Shown: positions 39,576 to 64,000 of the stretch, in pieces | Layout of the letters: each line of letters opens with the position of its first letter | Position numbering within the stretch: position 1 is the first letter of the stretch | Origin: a virus | Direction: 5' to 3' (one strand) | IMG/VR virus record: IMGVR_UViG_3300020469_000009 | Length of the DNA stretch: 64,000 bases | Notes under the pieces: model-generated | Databases searched by the model: none | What the model was told of the DNA's origin: nothing | The model's input: the letters and a program-made list of their open reading frames with translations, nothing else | Made by a program: the position numbers and the translations under genes

Positions 39576-40226
39576 TTATTGATTCTCTAAGAACCTTTTA
39601 AACAATTTTAGTTTTGTATTATTTAATTCTCTACGACCGGCCTCAAGCAACTCTTTTCTAGCTTTTTCAAGGTCGATTCTTTGCCATACACCTGACTCAT
39701 ATATCCAATCCGCTTGCTCATAAACTCCCTCAACGAAAGCCTCTTGAGCAGATGGGTCAAATACAACATCAGCTGCTGTAGTTAAGACAAAATCTTCTTG
39801 CACTTCATTATATCCCTGACGAGTCATTCTCAAAGAACCTAATCCTCGAGATGAAACACCAATTTTTACGCCATCGTCAAGTAGATTTTCAACGATTTTA
39901 CCCATTGGAGTACTAAGGACTTGTGCTTTTCCTTTATAGTAATAGCCATCTCTAGTTAACTCTTTCGTCATGATAGCCGCTCTTTCAGGGTTTACAACCG
40001 GCTCAGCCGGGTGGTTTAATTCACCTAGTGCTCTTGACTGGGCGATATAATCTTTTTTATAAGCTTCAACAGCTTTATCCATTACGTGTTGAGGATAAAC
40101 ACGTCCATTTCTATTTTGTTTTTCTGCTTGTAAGAATGGACCTTGGATAAATTTCCTTTTTTGTTCTTTACCTTCTGTAAGAACTTCAAGGTCATTGAAT
40201 GAAATATCTTCTTTGATTAATTTCAT
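39576..40226 (-). CDS. gp21: Prohead protease (gp21)
   Basis: NRNGRVYP, ALGELNHP, GVSSRGLGS, DVVFDPSA. Confidence 0.97.
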   Translation of the reverse strand: MKLIKEDISFNDLEVLTEGKEQKRKFIQGPFLQAEKQNRNGRVYPQHVMDKAVEAYKKDYIAQSRALGELNHPAEPVVNPERAAIMTKELTRDGYYYKGKAQVLSTPMGKIVENLLDDGVKIGVSSRGLGSLRMTRQGYNEVQEDFVLTTAADVVFDPSAQEAFVEGVYEQADWIYESGVWQRIDLEKARKELLEAGRRELNNTKLKLFKRFLENQ

Positions 40227-40606
40227 TATTGTCCTCTGAATACGATAACGGCGTTTGGTGATGTACCACTAATGACTACATTGCCTTTTGCTTGTGCAAT
40301 AGCAACTCCACCAGTCATATTAAAGTCCCATTTACCAGTAGCAAAAACTTTGCCGTCAATAGTAATTGCATTAGGACCCATATTAACTACAGATTCCATT
40401 TTAATTGGTCTCATATAATGATTGATATTTTTTTCATCTGAGTCTGATGCTGGTGATTGGCCTGGACCGTAAATATTTTTTACTTGATAAGTAAATGTAA
40501 ATGCATCTGAATCAAGTGTTGCAGCAGTGTCTATATGATAGACTACTCTGTTTCCTTGTGATGAACCTTGAATCCCTACGGATTTACTAACAACTGTATT
40601 TGCCAT
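40226..40606 (-). CDS. Hypothetical late structural protein
   Basis: Beta-rich 126 aa in the head cluster; AATAAATA 4 nt upstream; two DSD motifs. Confidence 0.65.
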   Translation of the reverse strand: MANTVVSKSVGIQGSSQGNRVVYHIDTAATLDSDAFTFTYQVKNIYGPGQSPASDSDEKNINHYMRPIKMESVVNMGPNAITIDGKVFATGKWDFNMTGGVAIAQAKGNVVISGTSPNAVIVFRGQ

Positions 40607-40621
40607 ATCTTATTTATTCCT

Positions 40622-41368
40622 TTAAGTACCTGAGTAATTACGTGACCTTGTACTTACTCTTTTTTTAGTAATTCTTGATTTTAGTGCAGCTAGTTTCTTT
40701 TTACCTGCTCCCATTGCTCGTTTTGCTCTTTTTAGTTTGATGCCTGTTCTACGTAATCTAGCTTTTTGTGTACCAGTTTGAGGTATACATCTATTACCCT
40801 GTAATCTAGTTCCTTTTGGACATCTTTTTCTTTTTGTAATTCTTCCTTTAGACCTTCTAAAAATAACTCTTGCTCTACCTGGTTGTGCTTCATCAAATGT
40901 AGTCATCCCATCTTCTAATGGGTCATCCATACTTTCTGGTAAATCTTGGTCTACTAAATCAAATGAATCAGCAAACATAGCATCTTTGATTTTTAAGTAA
41001 TTATTAACACCATCATCATAATAGTCTCTCATACCATCAATTTCAAATTCTACATCCATTATTTCGCCATACTCATCAGGTATAAAATCGTAATAAGTTT
41101 CTGGACATGAACAATCATCATCGTCATCTGGACAATCACATATAGTATCATTTAAATCAGTTTCTAATTTTTCATCCAATTCAATTTCATAATCAAATTG
41201 TACTACTTCTTGAAACTTTTCAATAGATACTTCATCATGTATTTCTTGTAATACATCTTCATTTATAATGTGGTCTGGTTTTACTTCAATACCTTCAGAT
41301 ACCTGTGCCTTTACTTTAGCACGGTGTTCGTCAAACTTATTTTGTTTCCAGTTTCTAAGATTGCTCAT
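40622..41368 (-). CDS. gp68: Prohead core protein (gp68-like)
   Basis: Acidic N-terminal part, then a very basic R/K-rich C-terminus after FDE-A; between gp67 and gp21. Confidence 0.65.
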   Translation of the reverse strand: MSNLRNWKQNKFDEHRAKVKAQVSEGIEVKPDHIINEDVLQEIHDEVSIEKFQEVVQFDYEIELDEKLETDLNDTICDCPDDDDDCSCPETYYDFIPDEYGEIMDVEFEIDGMRDYYDDGVNNYLKIKDAMFADSFDLVDQDLPESMDDPLEDGMTTFDEAQPGRARVIFRRSKGRITKRKRCPKGTRLQGNRCIPQTGTQKARLRRTGIKLKRAKRAMGAGKKKLAALKSRITKKRVSTRSRNYSGT

Positions 41369-41534
41369 CAGTTTCTACTTGTTTTGTTTCTGTTTCTGCC
41401 TCAGGAGAAATCATTTCTTTTGCCATTTCCGCTTTCATATCAGCTAGTTTCTCAAAAGCTTTTTGGTCTAATTTCTCTTTCGCATCAGACTTGAAACCTT
41501 GTTCGTCATTTAATAGTTCTTTAAGTCCACTCAT
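41355..41534 (-). CDS. gp67: Prohead core protein (gp67-like), not in the ORF track
   Basis: Manual translation MSGLKELLNDEQGFKSDAKEKLDQKAFEKLADMKAEMAKEMISPEAETETKQVETDEQS (59 aa); TATAAATA 4 nt upstream; syntenic position. Confidence 0.7.
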   Translation of the reverse strand: MSGLKELLNDEQGFKSDAKEKLDQKAFEKLADMKAEMAKEMISPEAETETKQVETDEQS

Positions 41535-41551: not shown

Positions 41552-42541
41552 TTAGCCTCTTATCATATCCATCTCCAATTGGAGATTTTGTTTTAATTGT
41601 TCTTCAAGCTCGTCTTTTTCACCTTTACCTTCATCATAGAGAGCTTGACCATTTAACTGAACACCACCTGGTAATTCAGTATTCTCATACTTTTTCAAGT
41701 TTGAGCCCCACTGCATCTTTAATAATGCAGATGAATACTTTTTAATCCATATATCATTGTAAACATCGCCATATATCTCAGGGTCAGTTGCTTCATAACA
41801 TTCAATTAAGAAGAACTCTCCTTTTTTAGGACGTTTCCAATCAATATCTAAATAAAGTCTGTTTTTAGCTTTACTAAATCTAATTGCTGGTGATGTGTTT
41901 AATAAGAAATCTATATGTTCAACATACATTTTTTGTATGTAATATCCAGTAATTCCTGAACCAGCTGCATTACCATAGAATGCATCAAAGTTATTTAAGA
42001 AGTATTGATATTCATAATTGTACATTCCAGATTGAGCAAAGCTATCTACTTTTGATACTCTAGATATTTGTATGATATTTTCTGGTACTCTTATTCCTAC
42101 TTGTCCACCTTCAACTAATGCATATGAATCTCTTAAGTACAATTGTTCTTTTGTGTAATTTTTTCTGAATACTTTATTATCTGAGTCTAATGCAAGGTCA
42201 CTATCTGTTTTTACATAAACATTAAAACCAGAATCTGAATCTGTATTTTTACTTGGATTGTGAAATACTCTTGCACCTTTTTTATATTCAGAATCATGAT
42301 TGAAAACTGGTGCTGTAATATCTTGATGACGTCTTTGATTTTCAGCTATTACTTTAGCATTTACTTCTAATACTCTATAAGTTCTTTCATTACCGTCATA
42401 GTGATACTCTTGATACATTTTAATTGCATCATCGATACAGTCTTCTAATTGCACATCAGATACTTCTACGTTTACAACAGGTGCTCCACACCTACGTAGC
42501 ATATAATCAGCTAAACTTTGTTTACTTTTCGGTAGTGCCAT
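41552..42541 (-). CDS. gp13: Neck protein (gp13)
   Basis: LRRCGAPVVNVEV...Q.EDCIDDA...EYHYDG; WIKKY..AL.K.QWGSNL.KY...LPGGV.LNG. Confidence 0.93.
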   Translation of the reverse strand: MALPKSKQSLADYMLRRCGAPVVNVEVSDVQLEDCIDDAIKMYQEYHYDGNERTYRVLEVNAKVIAENQRRHQDITAPVFNHDSEYKKGARVFHNPSKNTDSDSGFNVYVKTDSDLALDSDNKVFRKNYTKEQLYLRDSYALVEGGQVGIRVPENIIQISRVSKVDSFAQSGMYNYEYQYFLNNFDAFYGNAAGSGITGYYIQKMYVEHIDFLLNTSPAIRFSKAKNRLYLDIDWKRPKKGEFFLIECYEATDPEIYGDVYNDIWIKKYSSALLKMQWGSNLKKYENTELPGGVQLNGQALYDEGKGEKDELEEQLKQNLQLEMDMIRG

Positions 42542-44054
42542 CTATATTTTCCCGTGATTCACTGTACATGTCCATTTGGTCATCTTCAGTATTTATTTGA
42601 CCTCCATCGATCTCTTTCATTATTTCACGGTCAATCCTAGCAATATCGTCTTCAGACTGGGCTAAGATGATTTTTCGCACATATTCAATAGAGAAATATT
42701 TACCAACATATTCAGTAGCATCTCTTAATAGATTCATCCTGTCAGTTAGTAGTTCTACATCTTTAAGTTCTTTAAAGTGTGTGTCTTCTATGAAATCAAA
42801 TGTAATATGAGTTCTCATATCATCAAATTCTTCAGCAGTACAAATACCTTTTAATGAACATTGTACTCTTAGTATTTCATTAAACAATTCACCAAATTGT
42901 TTCTTTAATCTAGCTACAAACTTACCAAATTTAAGTTCATCTCTTGAAATATCAGAAGCTCTACCAATTTGGAATGCTGTATCAGCACCATTTACTCTTG
43001 ATAAAGGAACGTTAAGAGCTTCATATAATTTGTTTTTAAAATATATGATATCATCGAGGTCACCTAGATTTTGGCCACCAGGTAAAGTGGTAATCTCTGT
43101 TGCTCTTCCGTCTCTTCTTGGTAGCCAAAAATCTTCCAAGACACTCATAAATTTACGACTGTCCCTGATAGCACCAGTGACTGGGTCATAATCTATTTTG
43201 TTTCTAAATCTGTTTTGCATATCTCTAAGATACTGCTCTGCTTTTATCTTTGGTAAATTACCAACATCAATATAGAATATTCTTCTTTCTGGAGCTCTTG
43301 CTATTCTGTAAACAATTAATGAGTCTTCCATAGACCTTAAGTTATTGAATGCTTTTACAGCTTTATCTAAATAACCTATAATCATACCTTTATTTTTATC
43401 TACTATACCAGATGGACAGAATACTACAGAGTCTTTTGATAACTTAACTGCTGCACCCATATCACCATCAGGTGAAAATTCAAAATGTTCTTCTATATCT
43501 TCTAAGAAAGGCATTCCTGTTTTAATATTTTTTGAATAGATAGGTTTAATTACTCTTTTCATTTTAAGAGCATCAATAGGTCTTAATTCTTGTATACCGT
43601 CTTTTGGACTTTTTGCATCTATGATTACTTGATAATATAATCTACCATCAACATACCACTGTCTAAATGTTTCATAAGATTTTTTCTGAAATCTTACTAA
43701 CTCTAATATTTTTTGGAATTCTGTTCTAATAAGCTCTTTAATTCGGTCATCCATATTTAGATTATCTAACCTAATTGATACAGGAGCTCTATCATGTTCT
43801 ACTACAAAAGCTTCATTAACAATATCATCAATAGCCATATCAGCTTCTGGATAAAGTGCTACTTCTCTATATGTAGATATAAGGGCGTGTTCGGTTCTGG
43901 CTTTATCGTCTTGTTCATACGTATAGCCTATACGTCCACCTACCGGTAAATCGGTTCCATCGTCTAATTGAACCGGTACTGGAGAGGGTATTTTAGGTGA
44001 TTTTTCTGGTGATATTAACTCAAAGCCAAATAAATCTTCTTTTTGTTCTGCCAT
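42522..44054 (-). CDS. gp20: Portal protein (gp20)
   Basis: WYVDGR, YRIARAPERRIFYIDVGNLPK.KAEQY, EDFWLPRR, TLPGGQNLG. Confidence 0.98.
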   Translation of the reverse strand: MAEQKEDLFGFELISPEKSPKIPSPVPVQLDDGTDLPVGGRIGYTYEQDDKARTEHALISTYREVALYPEADMAIDDIVNEAFVVEHDRAPVSIRLDNLNMDDRIKELIRTEFQKILELVRFQKKSYETFRQWYVDGRLYYQVIIDAKSPKDGIQELRPIDALKMKRVIKPIYSKNIKTGMPFLEDIEEHFEFSPDGDMGAAVKLSKDSVVFCPSGIVDKNKGMIIGYLDKAVKAFNNLRSMEDSLIVYRIARAPERRIFYIDVGNLPKIKAEQYLRDMQNRFRNKIDYDPVTGAIRDSRKFMSVLEDFWLPRRDGRATEITTLPGGQNLGDLDDIIYFKNKLYEALNVPLSRVNGADTAFQIGRASDISRDELKFGKFVARLKKQFGELFNEILRVQCSLKGICTAEEFDDMRTHITFDFIEDTHFKELKDVELLTDRMNLLRDATEYVGKYFSIEYVRKIILAQSEDDIARIDREIMKEIDGGQINTEDDQMDMYSESRENIDGTTEK

Positions 44055-44693: not shown

Positions 44694-46487
44694 TTATGCT
44701 CCTGCTACCTCTTCAAAACTAACTCCACTTCGTACTGCTACAAAGTTAAGTGTAATGAAGTTTATTGAACGATTCGGTTTGATGTAGATATCAGCCACGA
44801 ATCTGTTTCCATCGATTACTGCTGCCGTGTTGTTTGAAGCATCACAGACTACTTTAAAGTCCGTCATTCCTCGTCTTGACTTAACATCTGCTAAGAACGG
44901 CTCTACCGCGGCTACGAAATTTGCTCTTGTGAAATCATCATTGAATTCAAACAATTGGAACTTAGCAGCTGTAGCAATTGCTTTTTCTAATACAATGAAT
45001 AACCTTCTAACATTAATTCTATCAAATGCTGATGGTTTGCTTAATGCTGTTTTATCACCAAATAGTAATGTTCCCTGTCCTTTAAATGTAACGACTGGGT
45101 TAACTCTAGATTTGTATAATTCATCTCTTTCAGCTTGTGAAGGATTATATTGTAATTTAACTACGTTTTTGTAGAATCCTCTGTTTAAACCAGCTGGTGA
45201 GAACCAAGCATCATTAGTAAATTCTGCTCTTGCTGTGACTCCTGCAGTATCTGGATTTAAAGGCATATTAAAGAACTCGTCATTATATCTATCATATTGA
45301 CGTTTCCAACCTGAATCAAATACTCCGTATGAGTTTGAATTCCAATCTGAGAAATAATCAACTATTTTTCTAGCTGATGGACTGTTTACAGCCACTGTTT
45401 CAGATGGTGATATAAATGCCATTGCATCTTTTCTTGCTTTAGCACCAGCCATTACATATTTACCGACTGTAGTGCTATGTTCACCAGTTATTAATAAGTT
45501 TACATCTTCAGTTTCAGCATCTAGTAATTTATCGTATGCTGCCATGATTGCTCCATCTGTGACAGCTGAACCATCATTACCATTCTTAAGCAGTGCTTTA
45601 TAGATTGGTGTACCTGAAGTTTCAGATGGTAAATCTGAATCATATGTTCTTTTCAATGTAGCAAATGAACCTCTTGCAATAGAAGTAATAGTTGCACCTG
45701 GAGTATAATTAGCTCCACCTGCGCCTGTTGCTGTAGTACCAAAGTTATTTACTAAGTATACCCATTGTGATTGATCGTTTACTTTATTTACAAAGAAGTT
45801 ATTAGCATTGTTTCCATCTTTACTGTTTGCAGCTTTTGATAGGAAAGAATAAGTTTCTAATACTTCGTTTGCTGTGCCAGTAGGTCTATCATTTAATGTG
45901 TAAACCATTACGTGGCATTCGTCTCTTAAATCTGAATCATAAGTTTTTGCCCAGTCAGATGTGCCTGGTACTGCATCAAAGTAATCTCTAAGTTTAACAC
46001 TACCAAATACGTTTGTTGTATTATATGTATCTGAATCTAGTTGACTGTCTACAATTAGTACACCAATATCATTACCAAGACTACCTGGGAATCTTGCATA
46101 TACGTTTGATGTTAAACCTGTTTTGTCTGATGAAAAATCATTTTCGTTTTGAATATTAGCATCTGAATCTACTGCATTATCAGAGTCACCCATTGATGCG
46201 TTTAAAGCTCCAGTTGCTGATGCACGAACTACTTTACAAGCATTTGCATAAGATAAGAAATTAGCTGCAGCATACCAATCATCTCTGACGTATCCTGCGT
46301 TAGTGCCTTTTCTCGGCTGTCCGTGTTTGTTTAATAAATCTTGCTCTGAAGATATTAATGTGACTTCATTTACAGGACCCCACTCGAAACGTCCTGCAAA
46401 ACCACCAATCGACGTGGCGACGGCTGGTACAATATTTGTAAGGTCTGTTTCTTTGACCTGTACTCCTGGGCTTACTAGAAATGCCAT
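44694..46487 (-). CDS. gp18: Tail sheath protein (gp18)
   Basis: SPGVQVKETDLT, WFSPAGLNRG, FDRINVRRLF, FEFND, IKPNRSINFI. Confidence 0.98.
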   Translation of the reverse strand: MAFLVSPGVQVKETDLTNIVPAVATSIGGFAGRFEWGPVNEVTLISSEQDLLNKHGQPRKGTNAGYVRDDWYAAANFLSYANACKVVRASATGALNASMGDSDNAVDSDANIQNENDFSSDKTGLTSNVYARFPGSLGNDIGVLIVDSQLDSDTYNTTNVFGSVKLRDYFDAVPGTSDWAKTYDSDLRDECHVMVYTLNDRPTGTANEVLETYSFLSKAANSKDGNNANNFFVNKVNDQSQWVYLVNNFGTTATGAGGANYTPGATITSIARGSFATLKRTYDSDLPSETSGTPIYKALLKNGNDGSAVTDGAIMAAYDKLLDAETEDVNLLITGEHSTTVGKYVMAGAKARKDAMAFISPSETVAVNSPSARKIVDYFSDWNSNSYGVFDSGWKRQYDRYNDEFFNMPLNPDTAGVTARAEFTNDAWFSPAGLNRGFYKNVVKLQYNPSQAERDELYKSRVNPVVTFKGQGTLLFGDKTALSKPSAFDRINVRRLFIVLEKAIATAAKFQLFEFNDDFTRANFVAAVEPFLADVKSRRGMTDFKVVCDASNNTAAVIDGNRFVADIYIKPNRSINFITLNFVAVRSGVSFEEVAGA

Positions 46488-50701: not shown

Positions 50702-50739
50702 GTGATTGATTTCTTATAATAAAAAAGTGAAAAAAAACC

Positions 50740-50768: not shown

Positions 50769-50798
50769 AACATCATAAATTAAACAGGAGCAAACTAT

Positions 50799-52803: not shown

Positions 52804-52823
52804 TATTTATTCCGCTATAAATA
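52804..52823. promoter_or_regulatory. Divergent late promoters (AATAAATA on minus, TATAAATA on plus)
   Basis: 52804-52811 lies 4 nt before the desaturase ATG; 52816-52823 lies before the 52834 operon. Confidence 0.7.
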
Positions 52824-52833
52824 TATTTTTATT

Positions 52834-53523
52834 ATGGGAACAATAATGCGTCAACTTTCTATTGAAGACAAAGACCAAGTCTACGACCTAATGATGCGTA
52901 GATATATTCAATTGTCTAAATCACCAGTTCAATCCAGAAGCAATGAAAATGTTCAAGAACAATATGACCTATTCATAGATGAACATATGAATTTTCAATG
53001 GACTGATGGCCTCCCTAATGAGGTTAACAAGGGCAGGGCTTTCGGTGTATTCCATGATGAAGAATTAATGGTAATACTCACACAAAAATTCTCAACAACT
53101 AGAATGCCATCTTGGTATGTGGGTAATATGATTTCTTGTCCATCACTGAAGAGTTATAAAACTGTTGCTGAATATACTGCTAAGTTATTAGATATGGCTG
53201 TATCAGATGCAGAAAAATATGGGTATACTCAGTTTTATTGGGTCACTTCCACAAAAGGATGGAATAAAAGAGAACAACTTTGGTATAACTATAGTGATAC
53301 CTTTAAAAGGTATAATGTCTTTATTGAGAATGTAATACCAGCAAACACTGAACCTAAGTTTGATTATGAAAAAGTTATTACTGGTTATAGGAAACATCCA
53401 ATAGATTTGGCAATTAAGTCAGCAAGAATAAAGCCACATCTAAGACATGAAACATTTAAAGAGTATTTAAAAGTAGATTATGTACCATTGCAGGATTTAG
53501 ATAATGAGTTTGGAAAAAGTTAA
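52834..53523 (+). CDS. GNAT-like hypothetical protein
   Basis: MRQLSIEDKDQV start, AFGVFHDEEL, DAEKYGYTQFY; C-terminus paralogous to the next ORF. Confidence 0.5.
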   Translation: MGTIMRQLSIEDKDQVYDLMMRRYIQLSKSPVQSRSNENVQEQYDLFIDEHMNFQWTDGLPNEVNKGRAFGVFHDEELMVILTQKFSTTRMPSWYVGNMISCPSLKSYKTVAEYTAKLLDMAVSDAEKYGYTQFYWVTSTKGWNKREQLWYNYSDTFKRYNVFIENVIPANTEPKFDYEKVITGYRKHPIDLAIKSARIKPHLRHETFKEYLKVDYVPLQDLDNEFGKS

Positions 53524-54112
53524 AATATTAGATGATAGCTGGAAAGAACCAGTAAAAGAATTACTAAAACTTAGAGATACCCATAGTGGTATGTCAAAAG
53601 AATCTATAGATTTTGATAATATTTGGAGTGACGAATATTTAAACAAATACTTTGATCCAAATGAACCATATTTTCTATGGGGATATATTGATGATGGAAA
53701 ATTAACTAGTATGTGTGGTGTATATAAATGGAAACTTATTCCAAGATGCACAACTACAATTTTTGTATCTGATTATTCAGTTGGCATGGGCATATTTGCT
53801 ATTGTAGAAGATATGTGGAAAGTTCATTTCAAGTGGATGTTAGATAATGGTATCACACAGGGATTTACTTTTTCAGATGCAGAAACTACTCTTGATGCAG
53901 TCACAGCAAAAACAAGAATACAAAAAGCTAAAAAGAAACTATTACAAAGAGCTGGTGATAATCGATGGTTTACACAAGTAGAAGAAGTAGTAAAAGCAAA
54001 TACAGATACGTCTTGGACAGGATTTAAAATTATAACTGGTAATCGTAAATGGCCAGTTGATATGGTAATTAAAAGCTACACTTACACAGGAAATTGGTTT
54101 GAAAAAGACTGA
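53504..54112 (+). CDS. GNAT-like hypothetical protein (paralog)
   Basis: LWGYIDDGKL; EEVVKANT...ITGNRKWPVDMVIKS versus ENVIPANT...ITGYRKHPIDLAIKS in 52834. Confidence 0.5.
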   Translation: MSLEKVKILDDSWKEPVKELLKLRDTHSGMSKESIDFDNIWSDEYLNKYFDPNEPYFLWGYIDDGKLTSMCGVYKWKLIPRCTTTIFVSDYSVGMGIFAIVEDMWKVHFKWMLDNGITQGFTFSDAETTLDAVTAKTRIQKAKKKLLQRAGDNRWFTQVEEVVKANTDTSWTGFKIITGNRKWPVDMVIKSYTYTGNWFEKD

Positions 54113-55109
54113 GGATATTATATCATTGGCAAATGGTAAACCTATTGCAGTCACAGGTAATGGTCGGTGTGGTACATCATTCATAAATAGACAATTATAC
54201 AGACATGCAGTTATTAATAGTTCAGAACCTCAGGGCTTTTTAGAAGAATTCATGAGACTTTCCAGAGGTATATATGAATATCAATGGGAACCTATACCAA
54301 GAGTAAAAGATTTTAGCCAGGAATCAGCTTATACTGGTTATTTGTTTTCTGCTCTTAGTAATAAAAGCAATAAAAAATATTCAGGATTTAATTTAACAAC
54401 TGATGAAGCTTTAGAATATTTAAGACCAAGAATAGAAAAACTGAAAAAGCATGGGTTAGATAATCTACATTTAAAAATTTTTCCAATAGATTTTTGTGTA
54501 TTACATAAAATTGATGAAGAGTTTTGTAAAGAATTATTGCATCACTACCATTGGATATTTTTGTATAGAGAAGATTGGAAAGATGCATTTTCAAGTCTTT
54601 TATTTGGTGCAACTAGAGACAAGTTTCATTTCTATGATGATGAAGATATTATGAATACCGATACTTGGAAATATGGTGGGGCGAAAGATGCAAAGAGTTT
54701 TGTAAATCCTTATACCGCAACTGCAATAATGGACCAATCTTATGGTATGATAAATTCTATATTTACAAAAGAAATCTCTTGTTCTATAATAGAGATGAAA
54801 GAAATTCAAGAAATACCAGACAATCATGCTGAGTTTTTAAATACAAACTGTCCATATAAACCAAATGATTTTTGGACACAATCACCAAAAATGTTTAGCA
54901 ATAAAAAAGAGTTTACCAATCAAGCTTTAATAAACTTAGATAAAGCTACAGATAAAGCTGAAAAAAGACTCAAACAACTAGTTGCTGGTTCAAATGGATT
55001 GATGACTTTAGATGGTGACTCTTTGAGAATGGATGATTCAAAATTAAGAGATGGTAAACCTTATTTAGAGTATAATATAGGTACACCATTTTTGGAGTAT
55101 AATATTTAG
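54099..55109 (+). CDS. Putative PAPS-dependent sulfotransferase
   Basis: 5'-PSB-like GRCGTS near the N-terminus and 3'-PB-like LYRED...S. Confidence 0.6.
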   Translation: MKKTEDIISLANGKPIAVTGNGRCGTSFINRQLYRHAVINSSEPQGFLEEFMRLSRGIYEYQWEPIPRVKDFSQESAYTGYLFSALSNKSNKKYSGFNLTTDEALEYLRPRIEKLKKHGLDNLHLKIFPIDFCVLHKIDEEFCKELLHHYHWIFLYREDWKDAFSSLLFGATRDKFHFYDDEDIMNTDTWKYGGAKDAKSFVNPYTATAIMDQSYGMINSIFTKEISCSIIEMKEIQEIPDNHAEFLNTNCPYKPNDFWTQSPKMFSNKKEFTNQALINLDKATDKAEKRLKQLVAGSNGLMTLDGDSLRMDDSKLRDGKPYLEYNIGTPFLEYNI

Positions 55110-56078
55110 ATGGAACATTTTTACACACACAATAATCATTTTAAGTGGGGATATAATAAGAAATGGTTTACACAAAGACAAAAACCTCAAGACAGATATA
55201 CTGTTGAATTTGGTGTTGTTGATAATCCTTTGGATTTTAAACAAGAGTGTTATAGAGCTGCAAGATTAATTGATGAGTATGCTTATGGTGTGGGTACTTC
55301 TATTGAACTTATGTTTAGTGGTGGTTCAGAATCTGAAGTAATGCTTCGTTCTTTCATAGACCAAGATATAAGAGTCAATATTAATATTATGACTTATGAC
55401 CCACATTTGAATTTACATGATATATCTCATGCAATAGTATTTTGTGAAACAAATAATTTAGATTATGTACTTCATGAAGTACCAATATTACAGTGGTTGC
55501 ATGAAGAAGGTCTTAAATATGGGTCACTATCACAGTCTATTTCACCAAGAATTCTGCCCCACATGCTGCTTATGGAGAGACTAAGTGAAGGTATACCAGT
55601 CATGGGAATGGGTGAATGTTATATTGCACATGGAAATTTAAAACAATACTATGATTTAGTGGACGGTAAAATTATGCGAAATACTAAAGATGATTATGAA
55701 CCAGCACCTTGGTATTTTTATGAAAGAGAAAAAATTAATAGTTGGTATCGATTTGCACAAAAACAAAACATTAAAGCAATACCAGGATTTTTCCAATATA
55801 CACCAGAACTTATGTATGCTTTCCTTGATGAAGAAATGACAAAGCAATTAGCAATGAATAATTGGCCTGGTAAATTATCTAACACTAGTACTAAAAAAGA
55901 AATATATTCAAAACACTTTCCTGGAATACTACAAAAGAGAAAGTACGATGGATTTGAACAATTAGCTAAAATGGATAATCAATTAAGACCTACATTACAA
56001 AGTGAGTATGGCGACTATTCTCAAGAAGTAAAAATTGAATATAATGAATTAATAAAACAACTGGAAGGCGATAAATGA
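55110..56078 (+). CDS. PP-loop (adenine nucleotide alpha-hydrolase/asparagine synthase-like) protein
   Basis: LMFSGGSESE (SGGxDS-like), MGMGE, RKYDGFE. Confidence 0.55.
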   Translation: MEHFYTHNNHFKWGYNKKWFTQRQKPQDRYTVEFGVVDNPLDFKQECYRAARLIDEYAYGVGTSIELMFSGGSESEVMLRSFIDQDIRVNINIMTYDPHLNLHDISHAIVFCETNNLDYVLHEVPILQWLHEEGLKYGSLSQSISPRILPHMLLMERLSEGIPVMGMGECYIAHGNLKQYYDLVDGKIMRNTKDDYEPAPWYFYEREKINSWYRFAQKQNIKAIPGFFQYTPELMYAFLDEEMTKQLAMNNWPGKLSNTSTKKEIYSKHFPGILQKRKYDGFEQLAKMDNQLRPTLQSEYGDYSQEVKIEYNELIKQLEGDK

Positions 56079-56806
56079 AAAAGATGTTAATTACAGGTGC
56101 TTCATCTGGTATAGGTGCAGCTTTTGTAGACCATTACAAAGATAAGTTTGAACTTATTACAACTGCAAGAACCGAGAAAGAATGGATTACTGACCCAGGC
56201 GATATAACTGACAAAGAATTTAGAGCTGAATTAATTAAAAAACATAATCCTCATGTAGTGATTAATAATGCTGGTGGATTTAGAGAAACATTTGATGAGA
56301 CATACCACTTAAATACTGTATCTGCAGGTGAAATCTTTGAAGGATTTTATGATAAGATGCTACCATATACTCATATATTTAATGTAATATCTTACGGTAT
56401 TAGAATGTATGGCTGGCAAGATATGAGTAGAGAACGTTCTTATTACTATTCAAGTAAAAAAGCTTTATATGAGTTTGTCAATAATGTAAATATGTCTAAA
56501 CATAGACCAGTACATGTATGTAATTTAATACCGGGTGTTGTAAAAACTGATGCTGTAGATGCTGATATTTTAAGAAAAACTCAAATCAATAAAGGTATAG
56601 TAGAAGAAAATACTTTAGAGTACTATCTCAAAGAGAATTATCATAAAGGTAGAACACCATTCCATGCTTTCTTTCCTATTGCTAAAGAAGATTTACCAAT
56701 TATATCAGAATTCATAATGACACTTCCAGATTACATAAATATAGATGATATTGTAATAGGAATGTTTAATAAACAAACATTTCCTGGTAAACCAACAACA
56801 CAATGA
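56075..56806 (+). CDS. Short-chain dehydrogenase/reductase
   Basis: ITGASSGIG, INNAG, YYSSK (YxxxK), PGVVKT. Confidence 0.88.
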   Translation: MKKMLITGASSGIGAAFVDHYKDKFELITTARTEKEWITDPGDITDKEFRAELIKKHNPHVVINNAGGFRETFDETYHLNTVSAGEIFEGFYDKMLPYTHIFNVISYGIRMYGWQDMSRERSYYYSSKKALYEFVNNVNMSKHRPVHVCNLIPGVVKTDAVDADILRKTQINKGIVEENTLEYYLKENYHKGRTPFHAFFPIAKEDLPIISEFIMTLPDYINIDDIVIGMFNKQTFPGKPTTQ

Positions 56807-56813
56807 GGAGTGT

Positions 56814-57497
56814 ATGCAAACAGGCGATTTTAATAAAGCCGCTGAATTATTAGAAACTACAGCTAATTTTGATATTATAAAGATTAAAGCTGGCCTTGAT
56901 ATTCAAATGTATCAAGAAATTCTAAAAGAAGTAGAAGCTAAATTTCCTTTTTATAAAAAAGATAATCAAGAAACTTATGAAGGTTTAGCCTTGCAGTATT
57001 TTGATGAAGATAATCCTTATTCTGACGGTGTAAATCAAGCTTCAGGTTCTGATAAGTATAGTAGTTATAAAGATGTTGGTTATGAAAAATACTTAAAAAC
57101 TGGTGAAGGACATTTTGATGATTGGCAATATGATAGAAGTAAACTAAACGATGCTGGTAAATTGTTTCAGCCATTTTTTGATTTATGTAAAGAAAAGTTT
57201 CCTGAATTACATTTGTATAGAGCAAGATTATTAAAAACACATCCTAGACATTTTTGTTTAGACCATGTTGATGAACCAAAGTCATTACGAATACACCTAC
57301 CTATTGTATCTAATAAGTGGGCAATAATGTATTTTTTAGATAGACCATATTATTTAAAAGCTGATGGTAGTGTTTACTTATGCAATACTGGTCATAAATT
57401 CCATTCATTCTATAATTTTTCTTCAGGTTTATTTAGAACTCACATTGTTGTAAATGCTAAATTAAAATCAGATATGGGTCAATATGTGGTGGGCTAA
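56814..57497 (+). CDS. Asp/Asn beta-hydroxylase-like Fe(II)/2OG oxygenase
   Basis: RARLL, HVD, RIHLPIVSN, ADGSVY, HSFYN, RTH. Confidence 0.78.
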   Translation: MQTGDFNKAAELLETTANFDIIKIKAGLDIQMYQEILKEVEAKFPFYKKDNQETYEGLALQYFDEDNPYSDGVNQASGSDKYSSYKDVGYEKYLKTGEGHFDDWQYDRSKLNDAGKLFQPFFDLCKEKFPELHLYRARLLKTHPRHFCLDHVDEPKSLRIHLPIVSNKWAIMYFLDRPYYLKADGSVYLCNTGHKFHSFYNFSSGLFRTHIVVNAKLKSDMGQYVVG

Positions 57498-58248
57498 ATT
57501 AGATTTTACAGTTAATGTTGATGCAATGGTAAAGCAGCTGGAAGTTGCTAAAGCTATGTATAAGGCAATATATGATGACCACGGTTATGGACCACAATTT
57601 GGTGGATTGTCTATTTTGTCAGACAATGGTGACCCTCTTAGAGGAATGATATCAGGAAAACAAGCATGGGAAGAAGGAAAAATTAATTTTGAATTGGCAA
57701 TAAAAAAAGGTATCAATTTTGAATATAACTATGATAAGAAAACTAAGTTATGTATAGGAGAAACTGAAAGAGTAATTGATTTACTAGATGATATGGGTAT
57801 GACTCCAAGAAGAGCAAGATATACTGTGCTTAAACCTGGTGGAAAGAGTTCTATACATAATGATTCAAAAAGCGGTGAATATGCTTGTAGGATTCACATA
57901 CCTTTAATTACAAATAAAAAATGTACACACTCTTTATTTTTAGAAGATGGTACAAAGATAGATGAAAAACATTTTCCTGCTGATGGCAGTGTTTACATTA
58001 TGCAAGTAAATAATGTTCACCAAATTATAAATCCTACTGAAAAAGAAAGATGGCATTTTCTGTGTAGTTGTTATGATTCTACAGGATATAGTCCATTTAA
58101 AATATCTAACAATGAGTTAAACACTGTAAAGGTAAAGGCAGAAGCTTTTAAGAATGGTGTAAAATGGACGGAAGGTGGTGGTAAATTATTTGAAGATATT
58201 ACTCATACTTCTCAAGTTCATCAGCCAGACCAGGAAAGTAATACTTAG
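57484..58248 (+). CDS. Asp/Asn beta-hydroxylase-like Fe(II)/2OG oxygenase (paralog)
   Basis: RARY, HND, RIHIPLITN, ADGSVY, HQIIN, RWH. Confidence 0.78.
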   Translation: MWWAKLDFTVNVDAMVKQLEVAKAMYKAIYDDHGYGPQFGGLSILSDNGDPLRGMISGKQAWEEGKINFELAIKKGINFEYNYDKKTKLCIGETERVIDLLDDMGMTPRRARYTVLKPGGKSSIHNDSKSGEYACRIHIPLITNKKCTHSLFLEDGTKIDEKHFPADGSVYIMQVNNVHQIINPTEKERWHFLCSCYDSTGYSPFKISNNELNTVKVKAEAFKNGVKWTEGGGKLFEDITHTSQVHQPDQESNT

Positions 58249-58618: not shown

Positions 58619-58630
58619 ACATTATTTATA

Positions 58631-58777: not shown

Positions 58778-58825
58778 AGTATAATTATACCAAGCTTCAA
58801 AATAAATAGATTATAAGGTTATAAT

Positions 58826-59506
58826 ATGTTTCCAGCGAAAATAAATTTTGTGTGTTTGAAATATGGCACAAAATATTCATCACAATATGTAAATACACTC
58901 TATAGTATGCTTTCGAGGCATGTTAGTATTCCATTTGAATTACATTGTATGACTGAAGACCCAACCGATATAATACCTGAAATAAAAATTGTTGAGCTTC
59001 CAGACCTAGGTTTAGATAAATGGTGGTGGAAAATGTTAATGTTTAAAGAAGATTTTTTTGAAGATGGTATGTTTTTAGACTTAGATATTATAATCAAAAA
59101 CGATATTACTCATTTATATGCGCCTACTAACTACATGAGAATACTTTATACAAACTGGATAGACTTAGGTGAACAAAAAAAGTGGACAATTGGTGATAAC
59201 TATAAGTATTGTGAATTAAATTCATCAGTGATGTGTTGGGATAAAGATACTAAAAGACAGTTTATATGGGATGACTTTATAGAAAATAGAGATAAGATTT
59301 TATTTTTATATAGAGGAATAGATAATTATTTAGAAAATAGACAAAAAAGAAATATAAGAGTATATCCAAACGATCAAACATTTTGTTATTCATATTGGAA
59401 TTGCGATAAAGATTATAGGCCAGAATCTAGTATAATTCTATTTGACTACAATGAAAAAAAGCAACATCAAATTAGAAAAAAGTGGGTAAAAGAACTATGG
59501 GTCTAA
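58826..59506 (+). CDS. Glycosyltransferase, GT-A fold
   Basis: CLKYGTKY, WWWKM, FLDLD, NSSVM; AATAAATA at 58801-58808. Confidence 0.8.
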   Translation: MFPAKINFVCLKYGTKYSSQYVNTLYSMLSRHVSIPFELHCMTEDPTDIIPEIKIVELPDLGLDKWWWKMLMFKEDFFEDGMFLDLDIIIKNDITHLYAPTNYMRILYTNWIDLGEQKKWTIGDNYKYCELNSSVMCWDKDTKRQFIWDDFIENRDKILFLYRGIDNYLENRQKRNIRVYPNDQTFCYSYWNCDKDYRPESSIILFDYNEKKQHQIRKKWVKELWV

Positions 59507-60144
59507 TGCAACAAACAAAAATGATGGAACTTTTTCCTATTCCTGTATGGGAATGGAGCAGACAATTAGCTGAAATATCTCAAGACTACCCACATCGTAC
59601 AGAAGACTTTGCTAAATCATATTCTAGAAATCAATTTATAGCTAAAACTTGGATGCTAGAAGTTTTAAAAGTATATGTTGATATTGACAGAAGTACTAAA
59701 TGGTGGATTATGGGTTCATGGTATGGTTCAATTACAGTACCACTTATACGAAGTACATTCAAACCAAAAGATAAAATACACTTAGTAGATTTTGATAATG
59801 AAGCTTTAGATATAGCAAAAAAACTACATGGTGATTATGCAATTTCAACACATCATATAGATGTAAACTGGGAGATGAAACGTCTTTCAAAGTTGAAAGC
59901 AGACATTTGGATTAATACTAGTTGTGAACATATGTACCCTTTAACAGAAGAGTTTAATCCAAATGGTCTGTGTGTTTTTCAATCTACTAATTTTGCTAAA
60001 GACCCATCACACATTAATTGTTGTAAAAATTTAGATGAGTTTATTGAACAATGCAATTTTAAAGAAATACTTTATTCAGGAGAAAAACCATTCCATGATT
60101 GGGATGATATTCACAAAAGATTTATGGTAATAGGATATAAATGA
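59497..60144 (+). CDS. Class I SAM-dependent methyltransferase-like protein
   Basis: IMGSWYG, VDFD, INTSCEHM, QST, HINC, RFMVIG. Confidence 0.7.
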   Translation: MGLMQQTKMMELFPIPVWEWSRQLAEISQDYPHRTEDFAKSYSRNQFIAKTWMLEVLKVYVDIDRSTKWWIMGSWYGSITVPLIRSTFKPKDKIHLVDFDNEALDIAKKLHGDYAISTHHIDVNWEMKRLSKLKADIWINTSCEHMYPLTEEFNPNGLCVFQSTNFAKDPSHINCCKNLDEFIEQCNFKEILYSGEKPFHDWDDIHKRFMVIGYK

Positions 60145-60923
60145 TAAATGTATTTACTGTAAGGTGGGGAACTAAATATAGTATAGATTATGTAAATCGT
60201 TTGTACAATATGGTGAAAAGAAATTTAAGAGCTGATTTTAAATTTTACTGCCAAACTGATGATACAAATGGTATGGACACTAATATAGTTGCATTACCTT
60301 TTTTAGATGAATTACCAAACTCAACACCAGAAAAAATGTATGCATCTGAAGAATTTATAACTGGATTACCAAGACTTTGGGATAGACCTAAACTAAATTA
60401 TTGGAAACCAAATGGGTGGGGAATTACTGGACAAAAAATGTATTTTGATTTAGACTTAGTAATTCAAAATAGTTTATTGCCTATCATTAAATTGCATAAA
60501 GACAAACCCTTAATAGGTAGGTCTTGGTGGCATAATATGAATGATGAAAAAAAACCTTTTTGGCTTAAAAATTACGGTGCCAGATGTAATGGTGGTATGA
60601 TGATGTGGAATGATGAACAAGGTAAACCATTATGGCGTGATTTAAAAAAGAATGCTGAAAAGATTTATTTTATATGCACTGGTGGTTCTGATAATTGGAT
60701 TACATATAGACACTTTGATAAATTTGATAAGATACCACCTAAATATTATTACTCTTTTAATAGAGGATGTGAATGGCCACATGATACAGATATGCATAGA
60801 CATAGAAAGAATAAAATAGTATGTGTTTTTAATACTGATGAATATGGTAGAAACAAACACTTTCAATTAGAACTACATCAAGCAGAAAGGAATTACAAAT
60901 GGGTACAAGAGTACTGGCAGTAA
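60141..60923 (+). CDS. Glycosyltransferase, GT-A fold
   Basis: WGTKYS.DYVNRLYNMVKRN, YFDLD, NGGMMMW; paralog of 18217. Confidence 0.8.
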   Translation: MINVFTVRWGTKYSIDYVNRLYNMVKRNLRADFKFYCQTDDTNGMDTNIVALPFLDELPNSTPEKMYASEEFITGLPRLWDRPKLNYWKPNGWGITGQKMYFDLDLVIQNSLLPIIKLHKDKPLIGRSWWHNMNDEKKPFWLKNYGARCNGGMMMWNDEQGKPLWRDLKKNAEKIYFICTGGSDNWITYRHFDKFDKIPPKYYYSFNRGCEWPHDTDMHRHRKNKIVCVFNTDEYGRNKHFQLELHQAERNYKWVQEYWQ

Positions 60924-61567
60924 GAATTGGAGACAAATATGGACCTGAATATGAAGATTATTTAAGGTCTAAAATACCTAATATAGATTTTGTAAGAGTA
61001 TCAGATTGCAGATTTAAACTACAATGGAATAAAGTAGCATTTATGTCATTGCCAACAGAAGACCCAGTTGTTGTAATTGATATTGATATTTTACTTATGA
61101 ATGACTATATGGAATTGATAGATTATCCTATTCAGAAAGGTCAGTTTCTAGGATTGAAGGCGTGGTGGAAAGATACTGCTCATCCTGACTATAGTCTAAA
61201 TGGGGCTTTTTACAAGTATTATCCCAAAGACTGTAAATATATTTACAAGAAATTATGCTCTGATCCTGAGTACTGGATGAACCACTACATTGGACGCGGC
61301 ATAACACATGGTCCAGTGAATGGTGAACAATATTTTGTAGAGGATTCAGTAAAAGAACAGTTAGAACTAATATATGTGCCATCATCTTGGTTTGGTAAAA
61401 TGATTTTAAATCCAGGAAGTGAATGGCTAAATGATTGTAATGACGCGTATCCTGGTGATTATTTTTATGATAATAAAGATGAAGTGTTTAATCCTTCTGT
61501 GAAGCTTGTGCATTTTCAAAAGACACGTTCGCTTCATGAATTATGGAAAACAACTCCACAGGAGTAG
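60899..61567 (+). CDS. Glycosyltransferase, GT-A fold
   Basis: RIGDKYGPEY, QWNK, IDID, NGAFYKY, GEQ, LVHF. Confidence 0.72.
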   Translation: MGTRVLAVRIGDKYGPEYEDYLRSKIPNIDFVRVSDCRFKLQWNKVAFMSLPTEDPVVVIDIDILLMNDYMELIDYPIQKGQFLGLKAWWKDTAHPDYSLNGAFYKYYPKDCKYIYKKLCSDPEYWMNHYIGRGITHGPVNGEQYFVEDSVKEQLELIYVPSSWFGKMILNPGSEWLNDCNDAYPGDYFYDNKDEVFNPSVKLVHFQKTRSLHELWKTTPQE

Positions 61568-62243: not shown

Positions 62244-62256
62244 ATATTATTTATTC

Positions 62257-63252
62257 CTACGCCGGATTAGCAAGCGAGAGATAATAAGTCGCTTGTGCCG
62301 TTGCTGAACCTGACGGTGTTGAAGTTGATGTATAAGTTGGGTCACTAAAAGATTGTGTTTGGTTATCAGTTGTCTGTCTAGTATCAGTGAAAGAACCTCT
62401 ATTTGAACTACCACTTGGAGCGGAAGTCACCACTGAATATTGTAATTTAGATGCTGCTACTTTATTAATAAGTGCAGGAATACATGCTTGGTCTATAAAA
62501 CTTGTGGCTTGGTATGAACCAGTTTCATCAATTGATGCTATTTCTTTTACTACTGTACCATTCCACATTACAGGTTTTATATCACTACCAGGAACTGAAC
62601 CTAATGCTGTTTTTATCCAAAGTTTATGAGTTGTTGTACCAGCTGAATATGTAGTATCACTATGCCAAGTACCACAGTCTACCCAAGTACCACTTCCACC
62701 ATTTGTTGGAGCATTTGTACCTATTCTATATGAACCTACTTCATCACCTGAATACATATCTACTAAACATTGAGAAATAATTTCGTCAAAATAATCATCA
62801 TTATATCCAGATGCTGTTCTAAGTGTAGCAGGTGATACAAATTTTAAGTATGAATATTGGTCATTAGCAGAAAATGATGTACCTAAAGTAGATGCTGACC
62901 TATTTTGATGATATGCATAAGTTGCAACAGTGCTTGTACCTAAACCTGGAAATGAAGGATAGTCATCACCACCAGAGTTATTTCTTGCTTGTGTATTTGC
63001 TTGTTGAGTAGAAGCTGTATCTGTGGCTGAACCAATAGATGTCCAACCAGAAACTGAACCAACATTTAAAGCTCCTGCAGGACCTGTACCAGCAGATGTT
63101 TGTCCGTTTGCAGCATTTACACCAGAAGATGTATGATAATATTGTAGGAAAGATGCATAACGTTTTCGGATATTATATTGTAAACGATCCAACTCGCCGT
63201 CGGTCATTTGTTTCAAGCCTGAAGTTCCGTTTACTTTTAATGGTCTTGCCAT
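62257..63252 (-). CDS. Putative virion structural (tail/baseplate-associated) protein
   Basis: S/T/G-rich; RPL...LKQMTD, GSYRI, RGSFTDT, PSGS...TYYL pattern. Confidence 0.65.
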   Translation of the reverse strand: MARPLKVNGTSGLKQMTDGELDRLQYNIRKRYASFLQYYHTSSGVNAANGQTSAGTGPAGALNVGSVSGWTSIGSATDTASTQQANTQARNNSGGDDYPSFPGLGTSTVATYAYHQNRSASTLGTSFSANDQYSYLKFVSPATLRTASGYNDDYFDEIISQCLVDMYSGDEVGSYRIGTNAPTNGGSGTWVDCGTWHSDTTYSAGTTTHKLWIKTALGSVPGSDIKPVMWNGTVVKEIASIDETGSYQATSFIDQACIPALINKVAASKLQYSVVTSAPSGSSNRGSFTDTRQTTDNQTQSFSDPTYTSTSTPSGSATAQATYYLSLANPA

Positions 63253-63260
63253 AATTTATC

Positions 63261-64000
63261 CTATACTAATAACGACCCTGAAAGAACCGTTAATCCGTTT
63301 ACGTCTTGTATAATTAGTGATTGAGTACTAGAAAAACTCTGACCCGCAACTGAGAGTGATAAAGATTGTGGTGATAATACTGATGTTGAATCAATAGACC
63401 TCCACTCTGCATATCTATATGAACCATCTGAGTCTGTATTATTTGTACCTGGTTTTACTGAGTGTTTAACAATATTCTTTTCTGTTCTTTCTGCTGAAGA
63501 CATATCCAATGCTTTATTTTGTGCAGTTGGATCATCAATTAAAGTAGCATCTAAGAAATAAATTTCTGCAGCTCTAAATCCAGCAAATGTTCTACCTGTT
63601 TCAGACTGTTTGTTTATAATTTCTATTACAAGCCCATCAAAATGTGCATCGGTATCTGTACCAGTTCTTACAACTATGTTTCTACCATCTGAATCATCAG
63701 TTGTTGGTAGATAAATTCTCTTACCAAATAAATCAGAGTCATGCTCTGAATCATACATAACTGATATAAAGTTATATCCTGTTCCTCTAGGAGAACCATC
63801 TGAATCTGAATCATAAACACCCATAAGACCTGAACCAAATGAGTTTCTTTGAATTGCTGTACCTTTTCTACCTGCTCTTGTTGCATAGTCAGAATCATTT
63901 AATAAGTTAACAATTTTTCTAGCAACCCTTGCTTCTGAATCTCCTACATCAATTTGTAATACTTTATCTTCTGAATCAGCTGCAGTTTGATTTACTAATG
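63261..64000 (-). CDS. C-terminal part of a DSD/DSE-rich putative structural (fibre-like) protein, truncated by the window edge
   Basis: Frame stays open upstream of the track's ATG 63824 to the window end (LVNQTAADSEDKVLQIDVGDSEARVARKIVNLLNDSDYATRAGRKG...). Confidence 0.7.
   Translation of the reverse strand, partial: LVNQTAADSEDKVLQIDVGDSEARVARKIVNLLNDSDYATRAGRKGTAIQRNSFGSGLMGVYDSDSDGSPRGTGYNFISVMYDSEHDSDLFGKRIYLPTTDDSDGRNIVVRTGTDTDAHFDGLVIEIINKQSETGRTFAGFRAAEIYFLDATLIDDPTAQNKALDMSSAERTEKNIVKHSVKPGTNNTDSDGSYRYAEWRSIDSTSVLSPQSLSLSVAGQSFSSTQSLIIQDVNGLTVLSGSLLV

Follow-up and report, generated by a model that had tools for sequence, protein, structure and literature searches.

The general O-glycosylation of the Bacteroidetes is a periplasmic system with the sequon D-(S/T)-(A/I/L/V/M/T), and the major capsid protein of chlorovirus PBCV-1 is glycosylated at atypical sequons by virus-encoded cytoplasmic enzymes. 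Mycobacteriophages are said (in work of 2023 by Freeman and colleagues, cited in PMC11256854) to encode glycosyltransferases that glycosylate their virions, at the capsid and tail-tube subunits; to our knowledge no defined tripeptide tag belongs to that system. In staphylococci, the transferase SdgB attaches O-linked N-acetylglucosamine to a minimal DSD peptide (PMC8561734), and glycosylation of the stalks of serine-aspartate repeat adhesins protects them from proteolysis (PMC3794999). Here we describe the tripeptide D-S-[D/E] in a 64-kb stretch of DNA with a guanine-cytosine (GC) content of 33% (IMG/VR record IMGVR_UViG_3300020469_000009, from an uncultured marine T4-like myophage; hereafter the window), together with its occurrence in related genomes and the sugar enzymes encoded near it. 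The motif is genuine, under selection and specific to one clade; it occurs on exposed virion proteins and is presented there in the manner of a tag. It may be a serine-modification tag that is read by an enzyme, with glycosylation by the phage as the most plausible chemistry, a reading to which we give somewhat less than an even chance.

As with SdgB and SdgA, the serine of the motif is flanked by aspartate, and for SdgB a bare DSD is sufficient; the staphylococcal sites lie densely on an extended stalk, where their modification is protective. The adhesins carry long SD dipeptide runs, however, whereas the phage has isolated tripeptides spread over many folds and allows Glu in the third position; the staphylococcal enzymes are of the GT4 type with an inserted DUF1975, of which the phage genomes have none, and they act on a cell-wall protein rather than a phage tail. 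A parallel with the mycobacteriophages would be self-glycosylation of structural proteins, by enzymes whose genes lie within the structural region or next to it. The subunits modified there, capsid and tube, are precisely the untagged ones here, however, and the phage group and the host phylum are different. With PBCV-1 the phage would share a virus-encoded sugar pathway and transferases, a non-canonical short sequon and independence from the host secretory machinery, although the PBCV-1 glycans are N-linked and sit on the capsid protein of a eukaryotic virus. An earlier sequence-only reading of the window, which drew attention to the motif, had named the Bacteroidetes sequon. Both have Asp before the modified hydroxy amino acid in a three-residue motif; the sequon nevertheless does not fit, because the third residue in the phage is acidic and not methyl-bearing and Thr is unused (in the four enriched proteins of the window DSA, DSI, DSL, DSM and DSV have 0 copies each and DST has 1), and phage tails assemble in the cytoplasm. 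Pelagimyophages resemble the source of the window in being marine, T4-like and low in GC, with glycosyltransferase-rich islands in the structural region beside the fibre genes (PMC7029224), but the cultured phages HTVC008M and Mosig show no DSD excess. No description of a DSD tag in phages was found in the literature searched.

Gene identities in the window were taken from Pfam and PHROG (Table 1). The nearest cultured phages are the Pelagibacter phages HTVC008M and Mosig and the Methylophilales phage Melnitz, each with a tail sheath less than 50% identical to that of the window. Relatives from IMG/VR form a graded series, from which G001 (a 152-kb contig, estimated to be 85% complete, with a sheath 87% identical to that of the window), G002 (109 kb), G003 (69.5 kb, sheath 55% identical), G004 (35 kb), G008 and G029 were analyzed, in addition to the ENA contig L244.

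The four enriched proteins of the window contain 20 copies of D-S-[D/E] where 1.2 are expected. According to per-protein shuffles, 5 copies in the tail sheath compare with 0.45 expected, 4 in the gp13-like protein with 0.23, 2 in a protein of 126 amino acids (aa) with 0.04, and 9 in the open reading frame (ORF) at the window end (63261-63998) with 0.46; for each of these the observed count was reached in 0 of 2000 shuffles. The two copies in gp22 (1.0 expected) and the one in gp23 (0.22 expected) are at chance level by the same measure and are absent from the orthologs in G003, G004 and G008. They read DDSDP in gp22 and ADSDP in gp23, all three preceding Pro. The gp43 and gp46 proteins of the window have no copies. 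Protein by protein, these numbers reproduce the counts of the sequence-only reading, and the comparison with composition-shuffled controls that it had proposed bears out the enrichment. Among the tripeptides of the four enriched proteins, DSD ranks first by many orders of magnitude (16 versus 0.81 expected, P ~7e-16) and DSE is raised as well (4 versus 0.38). Neither DTD (1 copy) nor ESD (0) nor other D-x-D (1 versus ~7 expected) is enriched, so all three motif positions matter.

In G001, the 189 copies of D-S-[D/E] compare with 31 expected; 179 of them are found in 17 enriched proteins (9.4 expected, a 19-fold excess), and DSD alone accounts for 130 (7.9 expected). Single proteins of this genome have 30 copies within 781 aa and 29 within 1415 aa, and a 990-aa protein of L244 has 46. 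The counts for G003, G004 and G008 are 99 (15.6 expected), 100 (11.2) and 46 (8.5), and the number of enriched proteins per genome ranges from 4 to 17. The cultured phages show no enrichment in any part of their genomes (totals: HTVC008M, 20 versus 26.4 expected; Melnitz, 24 versus 26.2; Mosig, 18 versus 25.0). In an unbiased tripeptide scan of the virion modules DSD ranked first in every lineage (P 2e-107 in G001, 1e-72 in G003 and 8e-62 in G004), whereas the top tripeptide of the Mosig control was TVT, with merely 34 versus 12.

The motif is spread over at least 15 unrelated protein families. Rich in it are the gp7-like and gp8-like peripheral baseplate wedge proteins, the gp9/10-like connector, a DUF4815/VrlC giant structural protein, the gp14 neck protein, the gp15 sheath terminator, the sheath, gp13 and several family-less fibre-like proteins. 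Chance level (0-1 copies) was found for tube, portal, terminase, protease, scaffold and capsid gp23, as well as for the gp25-, gp6-, gp53-, gp5-, gp48- and gp54-like proteins of the inner baseplate. The earlier claim of an enrichment in virion proteins therefore stands for tail, neck, baseplate and fibres, where the excess is larger than claimed, and falls for gp22 and gp23; the 'decorated virion' proposed with it has to be narrowed, since decoration would concern tail, neck and fibres.

The sheath of the window has the conserved N-terminal piece of domain III and the C-terminal sheath domains of T4-like sheaths, with residues 4-98 and 306-596 aligning to gp18 residues 3-93 and 345-655 of solved T4-type sheaths (E-value 8e-85). 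All five of its motifs (GDSDN, VDSDA, LDSDT and, twice, YDSDL) lie within residues 101-285. This is the variable middle part, which we take to be the outward-facing domains of the gp18 structure. Four sheath sites are homologous across the DSD-positive lineages and the remaining ones are lineage-specific; two of the homologous sites are located in a small loop insertion that is missing from DSD-negative sheaths, and the others replace loops of the G-G/S-S type. The motifs of the gp13-like protein (residues 83-121) are contained in a clade-specific insertion of ~60 residues, which is missing from Mosig gp13 and is enlarged, with additional motifs, in G008. For the 126-aa protein no Pfam or PHROG match was obtained; its orthologs in G003, G004 and G008 retain one motif. 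The ORF at the window end has no family match, and its full-length ortholog in G001, which has 23 motifs, adjoins a gp9/10-like gene.

Between the orthologs of G001 and G002 (54-96% identity), 169 of 169 motifs are kept. This complete conservation of the motif Ser compares with 75% for other Ser of the same proteins (P 5e-19), and the motif Asp is conserved at 99% compared with 88% for other Asp (P 5e-9); the Ser is as constant as the Asp and is not replaced by Thr, Asn or Gly. The flanks are variable, except that Pro at +1 (1 of 406, P 1e-4) and acidic residues at -1 are nearly excluded. The three Pro-followed copies of the window are precisely the non-conserved ones in the head proteins gp22 and gp23. 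Motifs are isolated from each other, only 8 successive spacings in G001, G003 and G004 being of 2 residues (DSDSD). As a peptide, D-S-[D/E] is strongly constrained by purifying selection, and each of its three positions is specific.

Because DS encoded as GAYTCN creates GANTC, a site of the CcrM/HinfI type, a DNA-level cause was tested. Most motif copies are spelled GATTCAGAT, a 9-mer that was found exclusively in frame; outside the motif, too, the genes that carry it favour TCA for Ser (53%). GANTC sites in the window are at expectation (187 versus 193). Synonymous change between orthologs amounts to 30% in motif Ser codons versus 37% in other Ser codons and to 20% versus 18% for Asp, with the motif amino acids remaining constant. 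The GANTC count, the restriction to one frame together with the Ser codon preference, and the synonymous drift rule out a DNA-level signal: selection acts on the peptide, not on the DNA word.

IMG/VR sheaths with at least 55% identity to that of the window have 5-7 copies, with the exception of G008 (2), and those with at most 48% identity have 0-2. An exhaustive search of 1.84 billion representative proteins yielded 150 sheath representatives, among which the rich ones (9 and 13 copies) are limited to 57-61% identity; ~145 others lack the trait, as do all those with 55% identity or less, and no independent gain of the motif was found. The apparent exceptions, P0160 and P0163 (1 copy), both come from DSD-positive genomes; G008 and P0163 are DSD-positive via neighbouring or split genes, so that neither is a loss within the clade. 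The motif load is confined to one narrow clade, with sheath identities of ~56% or more, and, given this restriction among relatives, has arisen once.

The window encodes at least seven glycosyltransferase-like genes, compared with the roughly nine counted in the sequence-only reading. Its GDP-sugar pathway was recovered as a GDP-mannose 4,6-dehydratase and a DegT-type aminotransferase, a pair that suggests a sugar of the GDP-perosamine type. Late-type promoters ahead of some enzymes were likewise found, upstream of 52834, 58826 and 26335; a sulfotransferase and GNATs could not be confirmed. Further genes encode a mannose-6-phosphate-isomerase-type cupin, a fatty-acid-desaturase-like protein and a set of a ketosynthase, an SDR and two TauD proteins. 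AATAAATA is located 17 nucleotides upstream of 58826, and the relaxed core NATAAATA precedes 58826, 26335 and many structural genes; 15 of its 28 sites in the window lie no more than 60 nucleotides upstream of a start codon. The gene at 26335 heads a co-directional run that includes the KpsC-like genes. The late-promoter island is kept in G001 and G002, not in G003, and a protein atlas search with its first gene gave unnamed viral clusters only.

AlphaFold2 models of the 324-aa KpsC-like protein and of the paralog at 23473-24285 have predicted local distance difference test scores of 91 and 92. Foldseek matched the former to the KpsC and UDP-GlcNAc 2-epimerase folds with a probability of 1.0, and KpsC and WbbB were the best matches of the latter. 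Compared with KpsC, both models reach a probability of 1.0 and template-modelling scores of 0.46-0.53 at a sequence identity of just 8-13%; as modelled, both proteins appear to have the double-Rossmann GT-B-like fold of the KpsC/WbbB (GT99/GT107) kind.

All lineages with sequence for the region (the window, G001/G006, G003, G007, G008 and G009) have the gene block 24258/23473/22530...18915/18217 beside gp46. The two KpsC/WbbB-like paralogs are conserved in G003, G007, G008 and G009, and the 18915 protein, at 60% identity between window and G003, surpasses the sheath in this respect. Mosig and CcrColossus-type Caulobacter phages also have adjacent homologs of 18915 and 23473, and those of 23473 occur in contigs from genomes estimated at ~350 kb, six of which gave partial sheaths with 0-1 motif copies. 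Either or both of 18915-19583 and 23473-24285 were considered as the partner enzyme of the motif and rejected because of these homologs, in Mosig without a motif excess and in the six large contigs. G003, though DSD-positive, lacks both GDP-sugar genes and the late-promoter island, so neither is essential for the tag. The expectation that motif-rich relatives carry the enzyme islands holds for the transferase block, which is kept wherever genomes of the clade cover the region, and fails for the late-promoter island, which G003 lacks. The family of the 324-aa protein has 16 IMG/VR loci, all in the DSD-positive clade; with its profile, Mosig yields only weak matches, to paralogs, and HTVC008M and Melnitz yield no match. 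This protein is the best candidate for an enzyme that reads the tag. The proposal that D-S-[D/E] is an enzyme recognition site accords with the tag-like display in lineage-specific surface insertions; a link to any particular enzyme was not obtained.

An invariant Ser, variable flanks, the ban on Pro at +1, placement in new surface loops or on exposed helix faces, hundreds of copies per virion and a conserved glycan toolkit make D-S-[D/E] look like a sequon. Displayed on the solvent-facing neck, sheath, peripheral baseplate and fibres, it would be recognised by an enzyme that modifies the central Ser. The Ser might be O-glycosylated in the infected cell by phage-encoded glycosyltransferases from donor sugars of the GDP-perosamine and ulosonic-acid types, presumably phage-made as well, with the clade-specific KpsC-like protein at 22530-23504 as the candidate initiating enzyme. 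The outcome would be a sugar-coated tail and fibres, with protection from proteases or a tuned adsorption surface. Ser modification, glycan nature and starting enzyme are what we infer here. In its most explicit form, the clade would coat neck, sheath, outer baseplate and fibres but not the head with a phage-made glycan at D-S-[D/E], whose attachment would be initiated by a KpsC-like transferase that has switched from lipid or glycan acceptors to proteins; we regard this as distinctly doubtful. If true, T4-like phages would have their first example of protein glycosylation directed by a sequon, and the KpsC fold would have a new class of acceptor.

Several observations weigh against glycosylation. 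The head-surface capsid protein of T4-like phages, gp23, is not enriched. Avoidance of the tag by non-virion proteins is not significant (ratio 0.63 versus a baseline of 0.80, P 0.18), and although the ratio in G001 is 0.46, this is not significant against the three-genome baseline either. Every site is very stable over a short evolutionary distance, which a structural role would fit as well. Because the motif arose once, its co-occurrence with the 324-aa family, as with any clade-specific gene, is a single event and no statistical proof. Mosig has related transferases without a motif excess. GT4 (PF00534) and DUF1975 (PF09318) were absent in a six-frame search of G001, G002, G003, G008 and G029 that detected its positive controls. 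The conserved transferases are predicted to fold like KpsC/WbbB, enzymes that use lipid or glycan acceptors. In pelagimyophages, the transferases of an enzyme-rich 'host recognition cluster' were read as modifiers of host lipopolysaccharide, and no motif was reported (PMC7029224).

The main rival, and a serious one, is that the motif might be an unmodified surface element. As an acidic patch that includes a hydroxyl, it might take up seawater Mg2+ or Ca2+ or bridge contacts through cations, for example where fibres dock on sheath or neck, where the virion adheres weakly to glycans of the host surface, or where trimeric fibres are stabilised. We hold this to be doubtful, though it has points in its favour: the motif is acidic and limited to the tail exterior, it is not avoided by non-virion proteins, all sites show the strict short-distance conservation that would be seen in structural ion sites, and its carriers are, as we take it, the parts of T4 that touch or lie near the retracted long fibres. 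Furthermore, 34-56% of the motifs in G003, G004 and G008 occur in a single fixed heptad register that puts the final Asp in the core; in a trimer this would create rings of Asp. For the lineage of the window itself, however, heptad context is no commoner at motifs than at random positions. A cation site need not require an invariant Ser or the lack of enrichment of other D-x-D, only 8 of 426 motifs (~2%) overlap a DxDxDG or EF-hand-like loop, so that they are not canonical calcium loops, and HTVC008M, Mosig and Melnitz manage without the motif in the same seawater habitat. A purely structural element, such as a helix N-cap or a coiled-coil trimerisation motif multiplied by duplication of fibre repeats, would account for those motifs that do lie in repeats: a 21-residue spacing with the pattern R-L-DSD...Q..L, a paralog array in G004, and in the 990-aa protein of L244 a 15-residue repeat, DSDIRKDLDSDLKSF, present in 46 copies in two blocks separated by conserved spacer domains, in which the Ser would be on the exposed side. 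One amplified repeat, or a coiled-coil core motif, covers part of the motifs in G003, G004, G008 and L244 and was rejected for the window's lineage, where 172 of 179 motifs are outside heptad contexts, in non-repetitive sequence, and still 18 times over expectation. Globular loops carry the motif too, in the sheath and in gp13, gp14, gp15 and gp8-like proteins; homologs of these proteins elsewhere fold without it, and we rate the structural element as very improbable.

Tag-like behaviour would be identical if the reader were another enzyme, either a host cytoplasmic modifier or one of a different chemistry (phosphorylation, transfer of phosphoglycerol or phosphoethanolamine, acylation, or hydroxylation of Asp). 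No dedicated protein O-glycosyltransferase was recognised in the phage, and the window also encodes 2-oxoglutarate oxygenases, the ketosynthase/SDR set and many family-less proteins. The clade genomes have no Pkinase or CotH kinase domain, which counts against this reading as it does against glycosylation. For the Asp/Asn hydroxylase-like oxygenases of the sequence-only reading, the supposed link to the motif was not upheld, as such genes, and Asp/Arg-hydroxylase-like and TauD-like ones, are present as well in Mosig, which has no motif excess. Another modifying enzyme is in our view improbable. Chance or a composition artefact fits the gp22 and gp23 copies, which are at chance level; for the tail proteins it is excluded by the shuffles, the tripeptide scan, the ortholog conservation and the three control genomes, and its probability as an explanation of the excess is negligible.

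If the Ser is modified, by glycosylation or otherwise, the tail and fibre surfaces of an abundant marine phage group would not be bare protein. Models of how these phages adsorb, which hosts they infect, how they resist proteases and how their virions decay in seawater would then change, and the "LPS-like" (lipopolysaccharide-like) glycosyltransferases of marine myophages would gain a target besides the host envelope. Confirmation would provide a compact, portable sequon for cytoplasmic protein glycosylation. Even unmodified, D-S-[D/E] would be a striking case of selection on three residues at hundreds of places in each virion, and would point to an unrecognised surface chemistry of phage tails.

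Table 1. Features of the window, with the motif-bearing proteins listed first.
Feature	Position	Strand	Motifs, basis and remarks
Tail sheath gp18	44694..46487	-	5 motifs (46179-46187, 46161-46169, 46029-46037, 45930-45938, 45633-45641; strand -); Pfam Gp18_domIII_N, Phage_sheath_1, Phage_sheath_1C; PHROG tail sheath
gp13-like head-tail adaptor	41552..42541	-	4 motifs (42287-42295, 42233-42241, 42197-42205, 42179-42187; strand -); phrog_211
126-aa protein between gp13 and gp21	40226..40606	-	2 motifs (40505-40513, 40436-40444)
Fibre or baseplate-associated protein, C-terminal 245 aa of 722 aa	63261..64000	-	9 motifs; cut by window end
gp43 DNA polymerase	2680-5175		Pfam/PHROG; clamp loader and clamp also identified in the window
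gp46	27842-29548		Pfam/PHROG; gp47 also identified in the window
gp23	35988-37478	-	Pfam/PHROG
gp22	37546-39540	-	Pfam/PHROG
gp21	39576-40226		Pfam/PHROG
gp20 portal	42522-44054		Pfam/PHROG
Tube protein	44123-44689		Pfam/PHROG
gp17 terminase	46593-48434		Pfam/PHROG
GDP-mannose 4,6-dehydratase and DegT-type aminotransferase	20325..22540	-	Pfam E-values 7e-139, 4e-71
GT-A type glycosyltransferase	18217-18918	-	phrog_1962
GT-A type glycosyltransferase	18915-19583	-	Nucleotide-diphospho-sugar transferase family
KpsC-like GT-B transferase, 324 aa	22530..23504	-	Weak Pfam DUF6716 and Epimerase_2 matches
KpsC/WbbB-like (beta-Kdo-transferase-like) paralog	23473-24285	-	Foldseek
KpsC/WbbB-like (beta-Kdo-transferase-like) paralog	24258-25115	-	By paralogy
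Late-promoter island, seven genes	52816..58248	+	Perfect T4-type late promoter TATAAATA at 52816-52823, upstream of 52834
SDR in late-promoter island	56075-56806	+	
Weak Asp/Arg-hydroxylase-like protein in late-promoter island	57484-58248	+	
phrog_1962-like small glycosyltransferase paralog	58826-59506	+	PHROG, BLAST paralogy
Methyltransferase-like protein	59482-60144	+	Mosig 'methyltransferase' homolog
phrog_1962-like small glycosyltransferase paralog	60141-60923	+	PHROG, BLAST paralogy

The scaffold gp22 of the window (37546-39540, strand -) is unusually long, with 664 aa of which 20% are Glu and 13% Asp, and contains an internal duplication, KDPxETPMKDDSDPKK, at residues ~119-135 and ~354-370. 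A 185-aa protein beside the primase region (961-1518, strand -) has a stretch of 36 residues in common with the N-terminal part of gp23, at 56-58% identity to G002, G003 and G004 according to BLAST. The gene at 34227-34910 (strand +), which is conserved in the clade and absent from Mosig, was tried as a partner of the motif and turned out to encode PhoH. Flanked by uvsY and a gp19-like gene, it is the single gene there on the opposite strand, has TATAAATA 97 nucleotides upstream and is unusually well conserved (93% identity to G002, 62% to G003).

The GDP-sugar genes of the window belong to a compact operon (13719-22540, strand -) with two TauD-like dioxygenases, a family-less ORF of 75 aa, a FabF-like ketosynthase, an SDR-like protein, several proteins without assignment, the DegT aminotransferase and the GDP-mannose 4,6-dehydratase. 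Its make-up resembles that of a pathway to an N-acylated 4-amino-6-deoxyhexose sugar of the perosamine type; an acyl carrier protein was not recognised in it. The contigs G015, G017-G020 and G022 (L191-L196) measure 32-88 kb and are estimated to be 9-23% complete, which corresponds to genomes of roughly 350 kb; they encode distant (~35%) KpsC-like homologs and sheath ORFs of ~1100 aa.

In L244 (regions 8532-11758 and 16020-18992), the sheath, of which the 990-aa protein is a neighbour, was called in three pieces of 168, 342 and 585 aa, and a NUMOD3 gene of the homing-endonuclease type lies near a truncated terminase gene, which suggests interrupted genes. The slot between fibre genes and terminase is occupied in G003 (L095-L096, 5426-25777) by an enzyme island different from that of the window (48851-61567), so that the slot is conserved and its content swapped. 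The G003 island encodes three paralogous proteins of 390-470 aa, TauD-like and hydroxylase-like proteins, and proteins weakly similar to Mosig genes annotated as MoaA-like molybdenum-cofactor enzymes. G004 (L099-L100) has nine tandem paralogous fibre-like genes of 244-734 aa at 236-16576. In one of these (2169-4163), the N-terminal part is a coiled-coil-like repeat in which L-DSD-D recurs, and the C-terminal part has repeated '...VYVFTRSGTTW...' units that resemble a beta-propeller; the array could be a cassette of alternative receptor-binding proteins.

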